A DNA stretch of 64,000 bases from the IMG/VR virus record IMGVR_UViG_3300040770_000334, positions 46,017 through 110,016 of that record. One strand, 5' to 3'. This document shows positions 25,888 to 59,056 of the stretch, piece after piece. The position numbers were made by a program, and so were the translations under genes. This DNA is from a virus. Every line of letters begins with the position of its first letter. The stretch's first letter is position 1. A model generated the notes under the pieces. That model was not told the origin of the DNA. It ran no database searches and saw only the letters and a program-made list of their open reading frames with translations.

Positions 25888-26751
25888 ATGAGAAATTTTA
25901 GAAGAGAAATATATAGAACTTTAAATACTACTAGAGTTGGATGTAATGCTGTTGCAACATCTGGGGGTTATGGTGTTACAGAATTAATCCTTAATTTGGA
26001 TAAACCATTAGGTGGTATAGTTGTAGTTGATTTTGATGCACAAAGTGTTCCAGATAAACTAGAAATGTTACATAATGGAGTTAAAAAAGGTACCTCTGGT
26101 ATGAGTGTTGCTAATGCTGGGCCATTTGATGATATATATGGGTCTCCAACTATTCCAGATAGCGCACAAGCTTCTACGACTGACCAATTTATTGGTCTTA
26201 ACAAAGGGACCATTCCTAATAGGTATAGTACATTTGTTAATGAAACAGGTGTAACTGATTTAAATATGACAAAACAACAATTAATTTGGTGGGTTTACAC
26301 TGAGGCTGACTATAACGCTAACAACACTGTTACAGTTAGAGTAACTGGGATTAATGGTACTCAATGGAGTTTACAAAGGTTATGTACTGATATGCCAGCT
26401 TCGGCACCAGTAATCAACTCAACTTGTTATACGGCATATGATTCGCCTAGTGGTAGTTTTGCTGATAATTGTCTAGGCCAACAATTTACCCGTCAAGAAA
26501 GCACAGTAACTGTATATCTTAGCCAACCAGCAACTAAAGTAGAGACCTTTACTGTTAGTTTTGATAGTATTGATTGTCAGAATGCTTCATCAGTAAATAA
26601 TATTGGTATAACTATAAATATAGGTCAAAGCCAAGGTGGTTTTTCATATGTTTCAGATAATTATGTTGACTGTGGACAAGGTAGTTGTAATAGAGAGTAT
26701 AATACGTATTTAGGTACTGTTTCTGATAGTGGTCTTGCAACGTGTCCATAA
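25888..26751 (+). CDS. Putative tail fibre-associated protein
   Basis: 287 aa, Cys-rich beta-type C-terminus, directly after tail fibre gene. Confidence 0.55.
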   Translation: MRNFRREIYRTLNTTRVGCNAVATSGGYGVTELILNLDKPLGGIVVVDFDAQSVPDKLEMLHNGVKKGTSGMSVANAGPFDDIYGSPTIPDSAQASTTDQFIGLNKGTIPNRYSTFVNETGVTDLNMTKQQLIWWVYTEADYNANNTVTVRVTGINGTQWSLQRLCTDMPASAPVINSTCYTAYDSPSGSFADNCLGQQFTRQESTVTVYLSQPATKVETFTVSFDSIDCQNASSVNNIGITINIGQSQGGFSYVSDNYVDCGQGSCNREYNTYLGTVSDSGLATCP

Positions 26752-52550: not shown

Positions 52551-52793
52551 ATGGACTACGAAAAATTGATAGAAACTGTATCTCTAATAATTGAGAACGA
52601 TAAAATTGAAAAAGAAGGGTTAACCCTTGTTTACGAGCTTGAAAGTGGGTTACATAAGAAAATGAATGAGCAATTATTTTATAAAATGAATGAAGCTAGT
52701 GCTAAGTTTATACCAACTGAGGATTTTGCAGTTATTTTTGCTGATTTGACAGTTAAATTTATTAAAAAAGAGGTTAAGGATGAAACTGAATAA
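52551..52793 (+). CDS. Hypothetical protein
   Basis: 80-aa ORF. Confidence 0.6.
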   Translation: MDYEKLIETVSLIIENDKIEKEGLTLVYELESGLHKKMNEQLFYKMNEASAKFIPTEDFAVIFADLTVKFIKKEVKDETE

Positions 52794-53388
52794 AACTTTA
52801 GATTATGCGCCAACACATCTTCTTGACCTAGATTTAATATGTGGTATTGATGAGGTCGGTAGAGGTTGTGGTGCTGGACCAGTGGTCGCAGCAGCTGTAA
52901 TACTACCAAAATCTTTTTCATCACCATTACTTCGTGATTCTAAAAAATTATCAGAAAAACAAAGGTATGAAGCGTATGAGTTAATCTTAGCAAATGCTTT
53001 AACTATCTCTTGTCATGCTGGGTCAGTGACAGAGGTCAATGTTTTAGGTATTAATAACGCAACTTTTAAATGCATGCATAAATGTTTGGATGATTTGACG
53101 ATAAAACCAAATTATATCTTATTGGATGGTACCGTTTGGGATAATGTTGGTGATTACAAAGTTGAGTTAGTACCGAAAGGAGATGATACCTACCTTTCAA
53201 TTGCCGCAGCAGCTATTGTTGCTAAAGTTAGGCGAGACGAGTATATGATTAAACTAAATCTTGAGTATGAGGGTTACCATTGGGATAGGAATAAAGGTTA
53301 TTTAACGCCAGACCATATCAAAGCGATAGGTGAGTTAGGTGTTAATAAGTACCACAGAAATCAATATGTTAAAAATTTTATAAAATAA
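52780..53388 (+). CDS. rnhB: Ribonuclease HII
   Basis: GIDEVGRGCGAGPVVAAA, DSKKL, LLDG, KGDD..LSIAAAAIVAKV.RD. Confidence 0.92.
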   Translation: MKLNKTLDYAPTHLLDLDLICGIDEVGRGCGAGPVVAAAVILPKSFSSPLLRDSKKLSEKQRYEAYELILANALTISCHAGSVTEVNVLGINNATFKCMHKCLDDLTIKPNYILLDGTVWDNVGDYKVELVPKGDDTYLSIAAAAIVAKVRRDEYMIKLNLEYEGYHWDRNKGYLTPDHIKAIGELGVNKYHRNQYVKNFIK

Positions 53389-54238: not shown

Positions 54239-54269
54239 TTGACAAGAGTGTTTTAATGTCGTATGTTTG
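54239..54269 (+). promoter_or_regulatory. Bacteroidota-type -33/-7 promoter (DUF2828 unit)
   Basis: TTG-N20-TATGTTTG. Confidence 0.8.
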
Positions 54270-54293
54270 CCAAACAAAATAAAAAAAGATACT

Positions 54294-55745
54294 ATGGACT
54301 TACTTTCAGCGATTCAGACTAAAGATTCTTACACCGAAAATGGAATGTCAACTAATTCAACTTCATTAAATAGTTGTGTTGATTTATTTTTCCAAATAGG
54401 TGCCATGAGAGGTAAAGATAAGCAAGCTCTAACCAATGCGTTTACTAAGGCGTTTGGCGAGGACCAATTAACCGCTATGCGTTTATTGTTCTGGGCACGT
54501 GATATTCGTGGTGGTGCTGGTGAGCGACAAATCTTCAAAGACTTGATTGTTTACCTTTCGGTTAACCGAACACAAGTTTTGGGTAAAAACCTACATTTGA
54601 TTACTGAATTTGGTAGATGGGATGATTTATTAGTTCTATTAAACACACCATTAAAAAGACAAGCTTTAGAGTTAATAGCTAAAGGATTGTCTGATAAGAA
54701 CCAATTATGCGCTAAATGGATGCCAAGAGGTAATAATCGTCAAACAAAGGGATTGGTTAATATCATAAGACATCACTTAAAATTATCACCTAAAGAATAT
54801 CGTAATTTAATCGTAAGTAATTCTAGTACTGTTGAGCAATTGATGTGTGCTAAGGAATTTGATAAGATAGAATACTCTAAATTGCCATCAAAGGCTATGA
54901 GTGACCTTATGAAAGCTTTTTCAGCTAATGACCTAGTAAGATTCCAAGAATACTTGGGTTCTGTTGCTAAAGGTGAAGTTAAGATTAATGCTGGTGCTGT
55001 CTACCCTTATGATATCGTTAAAAACCTTAATAATGGTTCAGTACAAGGGGCAAACGTTCAATGGGATGCGTTACCGAATTATATGGTTGGTAACACTGAG
55101 CGTGTGATTCCATTAGTTGATGTTTCTGGGTCAATGGTTACAGCAGCTGGTGGTAGTACAAGTATTACTTGTATGGATGTTGCTATTTCATTAGGTCTAT
55201 ATATATCGGAGAGAAACGTTGGAGCCTTTAAGGATGCGTTTATAACATTCCATTCAAAACCAGAGTTAATCATAACTAAAGGTTCATTAAGTGAAAGATA
55301 TGAACAAATGAAAAGGTCAGCATGGGGTATGAATACTAATTTACAAGCTGCTTTTAAATTAATCTTACAAAACGCTGTGAATCATTCAGTACCTGCTGAT
55401 AGTATGCCAACTATGTTGATAATATTTTCAGATATGGAATTTGATGATGCTAATACACCTCATTTTAGAGATACCACATTGAGTGAATGGAATCCAACAG
55501 CTCAAGAAATGATTTCTGATATGTACTCAGATGCTGGATATGTCGTTCCAAAAATAGTGTATTGGAATTTAAATGCCAGAAATCAAAAAAATTCACCAGT
55601 TAAATATGATGAGAGTGGTACTGCTTTAGTTAGTGGTTTTTCACCAGCATTGTTAACTAGTTTATTAGCTGGTGACGATTTATCGCCAGTTACTATGATG
55701 AATAGAGTGGTAAACTCAGAACGTTACGAATCGATTACAATATAA
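54294..55745 (+). CDS. DUF2828-type TROVE/Ro60-like protein with vWA domain
   Basis: TENG..T..TS...VDLF, ARDIRGGAGER, GRWDD, AKWMPR, YPYDIV, DVSGSM MIDAS, IFSDMEFD, WNL; ATG54294. Confidence 0.85.
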   Translation: MDLLSAIQTKDSYTENGMSTNSTSLNSCVDLFFQIGAMRGKDKQALTNAFTKAFGEDQLTAMRLLFWARDIRGGAGERQIFKDLIVYLSVNRTQVLGKNLHLITEFGRWDDLLVLLNTPLKRQALELIAKGLSDKNQLCAKWMPRGNNRQTKGLVNIIRHHLKLSPKEYRNLIVSNSSTVEQLMCAKEFDKIEYSKLPSKAMSDLMKAFSANDLVRFQEYLGSVAKGEVKINAGAVYPYDIVKNLNNGSVQGANVQWDALPNYMVGNTERVIPLVDVSGSMVTAAGGSTSITCMDVAISLGLYISERNVGAFKDAFITFHSKPELIITKGSLSERYEQMKRSAWGMNTNLQAAFKLILQNAVNHSVPADSMPTMLIIFSDMEFDDANTPHFRDTTLSEWNPTAQEMISDMYSDAGYVVPKIVYWNLNARNQKNSPVKYDESGTALVSGFSPALLTSLLAGDDLSPVTMMNRVVNSERYESITI

Positions 55746-55766
55746 TAAACATTTCTTTTTTCGTTA

Positions 55767-55908
55767 AAGATAACTTCAGCAAACAAAAAAAAAAACCTTA
55801 AAAACAAAGATAAACAAAGAACAGGTTCAACATCCTTTGATTCATAAAATAAAATGTTAAACCTTCATAACTGGGTAATTTTAGTGAAGTAAATGCCCCA
55901 ATATCTTG
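55767..55908 (+). ncRNA. Candidate small structured RNA A (TTCAGCAA family)
   Basis: AAGATA/TATCTT closing stem, TTCAGCAA at 55775, two internal hairpins; lies between DUF2828 stop and terminator. Confidence 0.5.
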
Positions 55909-55927
55909 TGTAAAAAAGAAATAATGT

Positions 55928-55956
55928 AAAAAAACTCCTTTATTGGGGTTTTTTTT
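55928..55956 (+). terminator. Terminator
   Basis: AAAAAAACTCC-TTTATT-GGGGTTTTTTTT. Confidence 0.7.
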
Positions 55957-56031
55957 GTTTATACTATTTACAGTTAATTTTAAAATGAGTAACTTTAAAT
56001 ATAAATAAGACGTAAAGTTATTTAAATATAA

Positions 56032-58069: not shown

Positions 58070-59056
58070 ATGAGTAAAAAAAATTATTATGATATATTAG
58101 GGGTGAGTAAAGATGCCAGTGGCGATGAAATTAAGAAATCGTATCGTAAACTAGCAAAAAAATACCATCCAGATATAAACCCAGATGATAAAACAGCTGA
58201 AGAGAATTTTAAAGCCTGTTCAGAGGCATACGAAACATTATCAAACGTTGATAAGAAAAGTGAGTATGATAATGTGGGGTCTAATGACTTTATGTCTAGG
58301 TTTCGTAGAACACCAGAACCAAGAGTTAGAATGGGACAGATAATGAGTCTTTTCGTTAAGTTAACACTAGAAGAAATATATACTGGTGTTACTAAAAAAT
58401 ACAAATATACCCGAAACGCAAAATGTATCGGTTGTGATGGTAATGGTGGTAGCGGAATGCATGATTGTACCAATTGTAGTGGTAGCGGAATGGTTATTGG
58501 TGTGATAAATACACCATTTGGTGCTTTTCAACAAGGGGTTGAATGTCACGTATGTGAAGGGATTGGGTCAAACTATTCATCACAATGTACGAGTTGTCAT
58601 GGTCATGGTGTATCACCTATCGAGGAAACTGTTGATGTTACTATTCCTTCTGGTGTTTTTGATAATATGACATTTGTCATGGGTGGTAAAGGTCATGGTA
58701 TTAAAGGTGGGGAATATGGTAATCTTAATATAACCATAGGTGAATTAAAACACGCTAAGTATGTTAGAAACGGTAATGATTTAAGGCTAACACTTAAGCT
58801 AGACTACACGCAGTTGGTTTTAGGTGATAAAATTGATATAGAGACAATCGATGGTGGTAAAATTAGAGTTAATATACCAGAATCTAGTGATGTTGGTATG
58901 AATTTAAAAGTTAAGAACAAAGGGCTTAAACAATATGGTAGGGACCATCGTGGTGATATTGTTATAACTTTAAATGTTGAAATACCTAAAGGTATATCTA
59001 GTGAAACAAGGGAGTTATTATTAAAATTAAAAGAGTTAGAAAAAGAAGTAAAATAG
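58070..59056 (+). CDS. dnaJ: DnaJ chaperone (J-domain, Zn finger, C-terminal domain)
   Basis: NYYDILGV, HPD, four CxxCxGxG repeats. Confidence 0.95.
   Translation: MSKKNYYDILGVSKDASGDEIKKSYRKLAKKYHPDINPDDKTAEENFKACSEAYETLSNVDKKSEYDNVGSNDFMSRFRRTPEPRVRMGQIMSLFVKLTLEEIYTGVTKKYKYTRNAKCIGCDGNGGSGMHDCTNCSGSGMVIGVINTPFGAFQQGVECHVCEGIGSNYSSQCTSCHGHGVSPIEETVDVTIPSGVFDNMTFVMGGKGHGIKGGEYGNLNITIGELKHAKYVRNGNDLRLTLKLDYTQLVLGDKIDIETIDGGKIRVNIPESSDVGMNLKVKNKGLKQYGRDHRGDIVITLNVEIPKGISSETRELLLKLKELEKEVK

Follow-up and report, generated by a model that had tools for sequence, protein, structure and literature searches.

The 64-kb window analysed here, i.e., the whole stretch of 64,000 nucleotides, corresponds to bases 46017-110016 of a 119,658-bp IMG/VR viral contig (CheckV completeness 34%), which probably derives from a jumbo phage. 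The one DNA sample found to contain the contig almost in full is an ice metagenome, and this may be where it came from. It carries a gene for a 483-amino acid (aa) protein of the DUF2828 family and three small RNAs, designated RNAs A, B and C, which share an element that we call the handle, in which a 6-8 bp stem, its sequence differing between copies, is combined with UUCAGCAA at the opening of the loop. Judging from the predicted fold of the protein and from the distribution of the handle among phages, we consider it likely that the protein belongs to a Ro60-like family and that RNAs A, B and C are its Y-RNA-like partners. DUF2828 is an uncharacterised family; the sequenced phages that encode it number at least 711 and include Felix O1-like phages, KVP40, Listeria P100-like phages and mycobacteriophages. 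The literature searched contained only incidental mentions of the family in plants and tardigrades. Ro60/Y-RNA particles, for their part, are a classic RNA-surveillance system that is still poorly understood.

In Pfam, the 483-aa protein matched DUF7788 (PF25043; E-value 4.2e-51, 173.8 bits, cut-off 27.1) and DUF2828 (PF11443; E-value 2.9e-32, 112.5 bits, cut-off 29), and in PHROGs it fell into phrog_850, "RNA-binding protein" (E-value 5.2e-144). The metal ion-dependent adhesion site (MIDAS), comprising D276-x-S278-x-S280, T348 and D380, was invariant in an alignment of 24 homologues with 36-67% identity to the protein. The AlphaFold2 model (predicted local distance difference test 82.6, predicted template modelling score 0.81) was compared with solved structures. 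The best 13 Foldseek matches of the model in the PDB were all Ro60/TROVE proteins aligned over the whole chain (E-values 4.5e-8 to 9e-6, template modelling scores 0.39-0.59), including the Ro60 of Thermus phage phiLo, Xenopus and human Ro60, and Deinococcus Rsr. By VIA-align, the model matched Xenopus Ro with a Z-score of 18.7 and a root-mean-square deviation of 4.2 Å over 411 residues, and the top ten matches were without exception Ro60/TROVE proteins (Z 13.4-18.7, 377-411 residues), whereas vWA-only matches reached Z-scores of at most 11.1. The top Swiss-Prot fold matches were likewise the Ro60 proteins of frog, mouse, human, worm and Deinococcus, together with the TROVE protein telomerase p80.

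The handle RNAs and their linkage to DUF2828

RNAs A, B and C are built alike: the 5′ arm (6-8 nt) leads, over a 0-2 nt spacer, into TTCAGCAA, which an A-rich loop of 31-119 nt separates from the complementary 3′ arm, and a G comes next. A and B, the long forms, possess an extra outer stem, P0, in addition to the handle stem P1 (Table 1). Their similarity is limited to approximately 25 nt around the motif. We rejected the idea of three copies of one RNA, as the three are not homologous over their length; what we retain is three RNAs sharing the handle. TTCAGCAA appears nine times in the window against 2.5 expected, a number that none of 100 shuffles reached, and the combination of this 8-mer with an A-rich tail (at most one mismatch) was found at just three sites in the entire contig, namely those in RNAs A, B and C. 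In the 3′ domain of RNA A, the TGGG of the P3 loop (55872-55875) can pair with CCCA (55897-55900), as read from the sequence. This pseudoknot stays a candidate with limited covariation, because a search with the 3′-domain pattern, intended to enlarge the long-form family, yielded one clear new orthologue (L232) and otherwise mostly chance hits. No tRNA-like T or D arms were recognised in any of the three RNAs, and a degenerate tRNA-like element follows RNA B. At gathering score, Rfam detected only tmRNA (transfer-messenger RNA) and tRNA across the window, and a permissive Rfam search of 55700-56000 gave only noise around the terminator-like hairpin.

A naive scan for the 8-mer with a stem of at least 6 bp proved unspecific in this A/T-rich genome, and covariance models were used instead, R1 being built from eight short hairpins and R2 from 30 matches. 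RNA C scored 45.4 bits with R1 and 44.3 bits with R2 (E-value ~2e-7). In the 30-sequence alignment, which was fitted to the model, a procedure that favours pairing, all seven of the seven stem pairs show changes on both sides, i.e., compensatory changes, and 91.6% of the cells are paired, versus 68% in shuffles and at most 43.5% when the partner strand was slid. The covariation score of the alignment was reached in none of 500 shuffles. The effect size and the slid controls argue for the handle helix being real.

The relatives of the protein were collected from 59 viral contigs (loci with such relatives carry L numbers below). When both strands of these loci (375 kb) were scanned with R2 at an E-value of 0.1 or below, 73 matches were obtained in 42 loci, and 72 of the 73 lay on the strand of the gene, most of them ending 10-100 nt before the start codon or beginning no more than 150 nt past the stop codon. 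The family consensus of the motif is WWCAGCAA. Six more loci carry long forms recognised by eye, and several of the remaining ones end short at the relevant side. The matches stand directly downstream of the gene in the clade of this phage, in L018, L020 and L054, and in a mycobacteriophage; they stand directly upstream in Felix-O1-like metagenomic loci, Campylobacter phages, KVP40 and Listeria phage cka15. Tandem arrays of two to four handle hairpins are common. The hosts of the handle-bearing phages span Bacteroidota-like, proteobacterial, firmicute and actinobacterial groups.

The linkage was also seen in whole genomes and from the side of the RNA. At an E-value of 0.05 or below, 18 of 20 DUF2828-encoding phage genomes contained one to six matches each. 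Neither a handle match nor DUF2828 was found in five large control phages (T4, T5, Bxz1, SPO1 and phiKZ; 860 kb), of which Bxz1 encodes a TROVE-type Ro60 (exact test for 18/20 versus 0/5, ~4e-4). The pattern-first search used the RNA alone (AGGAT-N3-TWCAGCAA-N{20,50}-ATCCTG), and DUF2828 turned out to be encoded in 21 of the 47 searchable contigs, versus a background of ~1.4% of phage records (711/50,697). The fraction was three of three among contigs at least 90% complete and eight of nine (one weakly) among those at least 40% complete, and the contigs without DUF2828 were mostly fragments less than 20% complete. A preliminary description of this stretch had named an independent spread of the RNA motif as an outcome that would speak against its proposal; the genome, control and pattern-first scans show that the motif is not spread in this manner. 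We found no description of this RNA family in Rfam 15 or in the literature searched. Because the same handle stands beside the DUF2828 family in dozens of phages, the handle RNA is most likely the partner of the DUF2828 protein and, together with it, an undescribed cousin of the Ro60/Y-RNA particle.

The close relatives of the protein (58-69% identity; L009-L015) all have an RNA of A-like layout directly after the gene, and orthologous long forms with differing P0 and P1 sequences were identified after the gene in L009-L014 and L017. The motif in the close relatives is TTCTGCAA or TACAGCAA. P1 varies among AAGATGT/ACATCTT, AAGATGC/GTATCTT, AGAATGT/ACATTCT and AGAATAC/GTATTCT, and was recovered independently by minimum-free-energy folds in L010-L014 and L017; P0, whose sequence differs in each case, has 13 bp in L010 and 10 bp in both L012 and L017. 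The 3′ hairpin is kept as well, with the pairing between its loop and the downstream sequence changing from GGG/CCC to GGTAAT/ATTACC (L013) and AGCTA/TAGCT (L014).

Named phages illustrate the range of arrangements. In Listeria phage cka15 (L068 3132-3398; OR088597 25,288-25,554), three tandem hairpins with the stems AGGAATC, AGAGAGC and AGGAAGC, preceded by a sigma-A-type promoter, lie directly upstream of CKA15_055, and a gene for an RtcB-type ligase is located 1.3 kb downstream of CKA15_055. The protein CKA15_055 was found in purified virions (PMC12282133), which hints that it may be delivered with the genome. Between the tRNAs that lie downstream of the "vWFA protein" of a Felix-O1-like Salmonella phage there are three copies, and in Mycobacterium phage Appletree2 copies come after a "Ro-like RNA binding protein". 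Upstream of KVP40.0300 in KVP40 (L069 2960-3000), the 3′ arm of the stem extends over the ATG, with the Shine-Dalgarno sequence placed in the loop, so that this handle is likely a translational operator. Hairpins alternate with tRNAs in L054 and L071, and a permuted tmRNA is positioned 2 kb upstream of the DUF2828 gene in L067.

Some handles enclose tRNA-like bodies. The RNAs of Appletree2 (L070 4496-4604) and L067 (2688-2813) contain hairpins resembling T and D arms within the handle stem and motif, and they scored 39.8 and 38.6 bits, respectively, with the whole Rfam model of YrlA, below the gathering score of 69. L040 and L054 encode tRNA-like RNAs of ~115 nt with a hairpin and the motif in place of the anticodon loop. 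As the handle closes the YrlA-like RNAs, it would occupy the place of the Ro-binding end of YrlA. The proposal that the RNAs of the window are non-canonical Y-RNA equivalents gains support from these tRNA mimics closed by the handle in relatives, as well as from the way in which the handle tracks DUF2828.

Genomic setting in the window

The preliminary description had placed a promoter, the Ro60-like gene, RNA A and a terminator in one compact unit, with RNA A starting 22 nt after the stop codon. All four parts were recovered at the positions claimed, and the 22-nt distance holds when RNA A is counted from the 5′ arm of P1 (Table 1). The non-coding stretch between the gene and the terminator-like hairpin is 180 nt long, and the terminator scan found no terminator-like site between the stop codon and RNA A. 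The promoter-like site agrees with TTGACA-N17-TAnnTTTG. Its more relaxed form, TTGACA-N{16,19}-TAnnTTTG, matches twice in the window, at the two promoter-like sites of Table 1, against 0.21 expected, and two of 100 shuffles gave two or more matches. A generic sigma-70 scan of the window showed no enrichment (81 sites found versus 76 expected), and we therefore count the site before the gene as a consensus match and not as proof of a promoter. The TTG...TAnnTTTG form (-33/-7 type) is typical of Bacteroidota. RNAs B and C share the second unit, 6.5 kb from the gene.

Table 1. Features of the window discussed in the text
Feature	Position	Strand	Remarks
RNase HII gene	52780-53388	+	E-value 4.5e-34; neighbour of the Ro60-like gene
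Promoter-like site, TTGACA-N17-TATGTTTG	54239-54269	+	consensus match, -33/-7 type
Gene for the 483-aa protein with predicted Ro60 fold (DUF2828 + DUF7788/vWA, phrog_850)	54294-55745	+	ATG 54294, TAA 55743-55745
RNA A, long form	55751-55922	+	P0, handle stem P1, then G 55908; arms of P1 5′ AAGATA, 3′ TATCTT
RNA A, P0	55751-55761 / 55912-55922	+	
RNA A, handle stem P1	55767-55772 / 55902-55907	+	followed by G 55908
RNA A, motif TTCAGCAA	55775-55782	+	2 nt past the 5′ arm of P1
RNA A, 3′ domain	55863-55900	+	hairpin P3, 55863-55867 / 55885-55889
Terminator-like hairpin and T-run	55928-55955	+	11 pairs (3 G-C), loop of 6; ends the unit
DnaJ gene, full (J domain, zinc-finger region, C-terminal domain)	58070-59056	+	neighbour of the Ro60-like gene
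tmRNA, phage-encoded	61078-61434	+	Rfam 64.5 bits; 5 kb downstream of the Ro60-like gene
Second promoter-like site	62243-62273	+	same type; precedes RNA B, tRNA-like element, tRNA-Met and RNA C
RNA B, long form	62298-62444	+	P0 62298-62304 / 62438-62444; P1 62308-62314 / 62430-62436; arms of P1 5′ AAAATGC, 3′ GTATTTT; R2 18.5 bits
RNA B, motif TTCAGCAA	62316-62323	+	R2 18.5 bits
Degenerate tRNA-like element, CAT anticodon loop	62471-62540	+	Rfam tRNA 18.1 bits, below gathering score of 29; no ARAGORN call
tRNA-Met (CAT)	62548-62621	+	Rfam, ARAGORN
RNA C, short form	62626-62681	+	stem 62626-62633 / 62673-62680, TTCAGCAA 62634-62641, G 62681; arms 5′ AGAATAGT, 3′ GCTATTCT; begins 4 nt past the 3′ end of tRNA-Met
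Terminator-like hairpin	62689-62710	+	ends the RNA B/tRNA/RNA C unit
Release factor-like gene	62734-63412	+	in-frame TAG 62893-62895; +1 frame 62894-63412
Open reading frame	63598-64000	+	opens with GIY-YIG-like sequence

No RtcB gene was found in the contig, of which the incompleteness mentioned above makes the absence say little. Two further observations concern the end of the window. The release factor-like gene matches Pfam RF-1 (E-value 5e-22) plus a PCRF tail and retains GGQ, and it is broken by an in-frame TAG in the context CTT TAG C, which is shaped like the RF2 +1 frameshift site CUU UGA C; the gene could be subject to programmed frameshift or TAG recoding. The last open reading frame, of which the GIY-YIG-like sequence was recognised by eye only, may encode a homing endonuclease.

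Alternative explanations and a possible mechanism

Several results weigh against a Ro60-like particle. On the side of the protein, TROVE was not matched in Pfam at an E-value of 0.01 or below, phmmer gave no significant Ro60 match in the PDB, and the profile of the 24 homologues reached the PDB with an E-value of only 0.06 in a match confined to the MIDAS strand and region. The fold matches to Ro60 and these failed sequence searches, taken together, therefore suggest that the protein has a Ro60 architecture and yet is not a member of the TROVE family by sequence. The label "Ro60-like" in the preliminary description thus stands as far as the whole-chain fold, the MIDAS and DUF2828 are concerned, whereas "TROVE" finds no significant sequence match.

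On the side of the RNA, the canonical Ro-binding motifs, GGUCCGA (with its bulged C) and GNCGAA, are absent, and neither Y_RNA (RF00019) nor YrlA (RF02553) of Rfam matched in the window; the remark that no canonical GGUCCGA helix is visible here was correct. RNA A alone folds no better than shuffles (z = -1.5), 10% of shuffles reproduce a stem such as its A/T-rich P0, and it scored only 8.8 bits with the short-form model R2, which does not pick up RNA A convincingly because its body is 119 nt long. RNA A being weak by itself, its reality rests on the comparative evidence. Some handle copies are 6-70 kb from the gene, so that adjacency is not absolute. Many loci come from related phage lineages, and the counts given above consequently overstate the number of independent events. 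Co-transcription of the Ro60-like gene and RNA A is plausible from the layout of the unit; in L011, L012 and L014, the gene is followed by a terminator-like hairpin before the RNA begins, indicating that co-transcription is not conserved. Finally, the only look-alike RNA proven to bind a protein directly, a Class I RNA of Dictyostelium, binds the RRM protein Rnp1A (PMC7919456).

Among the alternatives, the one that survives best is that the handle is purely a cis-acting operator, by which the protein or another factor controls the translation or stability of its own mRNA, and that no free RNA is made. In most loci of the Proteobacteria type, the end of the hairpin is right by the ribosome-binding site, leaving 15-25 nt to the start codon, and RNA A lies within the transcription unit of the gene itself; the arrangement in KVP40, with the stem covering the ATG and the Shine-Dalgarno sequence in the loop, fits an operator as well. 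Nevertheless, RNAs B and C reside 6.5 kb away in a tRNA operon, the extra copies of other genomes lie at the distances given above, Felix-O1-like phages have theirs between tRNA genes, tandem arrays are frequent, and the handle closes tRNA-like RNAs of the YrlA type. We therefore regard a purely cis-acting role as unlikely, noting that an operator and a free partner RNA are compatible and do not exclude each other.

Alternatively, the hairpins may be processing or stability elements of phage tRNA operons, read by host RNases or another phage factor, and their proximity to DUF2828 would merely reflect that this gene, too, adjoins tRNA clusters. The position of RNA C just behind tRNA-Met, the hairpins alternating with tRNAs in L054 and L071, and the frequent proximity of DUF2828 genes to tRNA arrays are in line with this possibility. 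However, no match was obtained in the tRNA-rich but DUF2828-free phages T4, T5 and Bxz1; RNA A, the hairpins of L018 and L020, and the three copies of cka15 adjoin the gene with no tRNA between; and phages from at least four bacterial phyla retain the motif, a spread that favours a phage-encoded reader over a host one. This explanation appears even less probable than the operator. That RNA A is an ordinary 3′ untranslated region with a terminator, bearing a common 8-mer by chance, is already disfavoured and hardly credible: RNA A alone is very A/T-rich and not significantly structured, and the simple 6-bp stem test is unspecific in this genome, but the 8-mer is enriched in the window, the orthologues keep P1, P0 and the 3′ hairpin despite sequence change, and the family-wide covariation and linkage statistics disagree with chance.

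Returning to the Ro60-like particle, the fold, the covarying RNA family and its linkage to DUF2828 were established computationally, and binding and particle formation are what we infer. If Y RNAs are taken as the model, the protein, a HEAT-repeat ring with a vWA/MIDAS domain, would dock on the handle; put most economically, DUF2828 proteins would have the handle as their specific RNA site. The variable body, i.e., the possibly pseudoknotted hairpin of RNA A, the hairpins of RNA B and the A-rich loop of RNA C, would remain available for recruiting or blocking other factors. RNA A would be made together with the protein from one promoter-to-terminator unit, and tRNA processing would free RNAs B and C from a tRNA operon that stands behind a promoter-like site of the same type. 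Where handles stand in 5′ leaders by the ribosome-binding site, the same contact probably adds translational feedback control. The particle most likely acts in the quality control, repair or decay of tRNA or rRNA during infection; this role we infer from the context, because of the tRNA arrays, the tmRNA, the RtcB-type ligase of cka15, the tRNA-like bodies and the attenuation of PNPase by the phiLo Ro60 described below.

It is attractive to speculate further, though with a little less than even confidence, that DUF2828 and the CAGCAA-handle RNAs constitute an ancient ribonucleoprotein, sister to Ro60/Y RNA, which is distributed across phages of many bacterial phyla and related to Class I RNAs. 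In the phage studied here, it would form part of a translation-rescue island (tmRNA, tRNAs and a minimal release factor), with one RNA derived from a 3′ trailer and two cut from a tRNA operon, and would guard or repair tRNA or rRNA against host attack. If the handle is genuinely the site of the protein, it provides the DUF2828 family with a testable ligand, since mutations of the stem and of CAGCAA can be designed directly. It also accounts for unannotated gaps beside DUF2828 genes and between phage tRNAs, and points to a phage strategy acting on the integrity of tRNA or rRNA in infection.

Comparison with known systems

The system resembles metazoan Y RNAs, Yrn1 of D. radiodurans, and YrlA and YrlB of Salmonella (Chen et al. 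2014, PMC4201824) in several respects. The protein is predicted to share the ring and vWA fold with MIDAS, and the small RNAs adjoin the gene. An end-joining stem surrounds a large loop (P1 in all copies, P0 in the long forms), a short motif sits on or near the 5′ strand, and the body varies, with tRNA-like forms in relatives. The genes are found among tRNA and RNA-repair genes. The differences are that the DUF2828 protein lacks a significant TROVE sequence match, and that the handle presents WWCAGCAA (here UUCAGCAA) in the loop by the 5′ arm instead of GGUCCGA or GNCGAA, the latter being the canonical YrlA motif (PMC4201824), in a bulged helix. In addition, many handle copies are minimal hairpins of 50-60 nt, often in the 5′ leader.

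Among phage systems, Thermus phage phiLo has a TROVE-type Ro60 for which binding to two hairpin RNAs encoded upstream of it (Yrl1 and Yrl2) was demonstrated by electrophoretic mobility shift assay and cryo-electron microscopy, and the complex engages and attenuates the host PNPase (PMC12135203). phiRo60 is a phage protein of the Ro60 fold, its two entries (PDB 9kop and 9l5y) are the top Foldseek matches of our model, and it is encoded next to hairpin RNAs as well. It differs in belonging to the TROVE family and in using RNAs with a CGAA motif (PMC12135203), and the DUF2828 pairing is a predicted one. In Listeria phage cka15, CKA15_055 is a homologue of the 483-aa protein (35.7% identity). The authors who described this phage reported an HHpred match of CKA15_055 to Rsr and suggested that nearby abundant non-coding RNAs are Y RNAs (PMC12282133). 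That study defined no RNA motif, and the most abundant RNA in it matches ROOL instead: the region "CKA15_059-061" (L068 1940-2491; OR088597 ~26,195-26,746), the transcript of which accounts for up to 67% of phage reads and is not named ROOL in the paper (PMC12282133), scored 90.1 bits with the full Rfam ROOL model (gathering score 99.1, E-value 7e-17).

The handle also recalls the Class I RNAs of dictyostelid amoebae, which have a short end-joining stem and an 11-nt motif beside the 5′ arm (PMC7919456) and for which the search pattern GTTGRCCTTACAGCAA ... GTCAACTG has been published (PMC5054030). In both groups, a motif ending in UUACAGCAA directly follows the 5′ arm, the remaining sequence varies and is rich in A/U, and UG comes after the 3′ arm. 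The hairpin of RNA C scored 29.6 bits with the whole Rfam model RF01414 (E-value 0.0012 in a 451-nt search; gathering score 41.5), whereas two hairpins of L018 gave no match to it at an E-value of 10 or below. Hairpin C agrees with Class I RNAs in its CAGCAA core, stem and terminal UG, whereas it differs in the first bases of the 11-mer (ending in ACAGCAA). Class I RNAs are eukaryotic, have been reported as unique to Dictyostelia, and possess a promoter element, the Dictyostelium upstream sequence element (DUSE), ~60 nt upstream, whereas the handle RNAs lie in a phage contig with bacterial-type promoters. DDB_G0281243, an uncharacterised Dictyostelium protein, was recovered in a Class I RNA pull-down. 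Dictyostelium is absent among the Swiss-Prot fold matches of the model, which is not evidence either way. The resemblance to Class I RNAs, as seen in motif and predicted stem, is real, albeit membership is not established and common descent is not shown. The DUF2828 system may offer a possible protein partner and a possible origin for the Class I RNAs of Dictyostelium.

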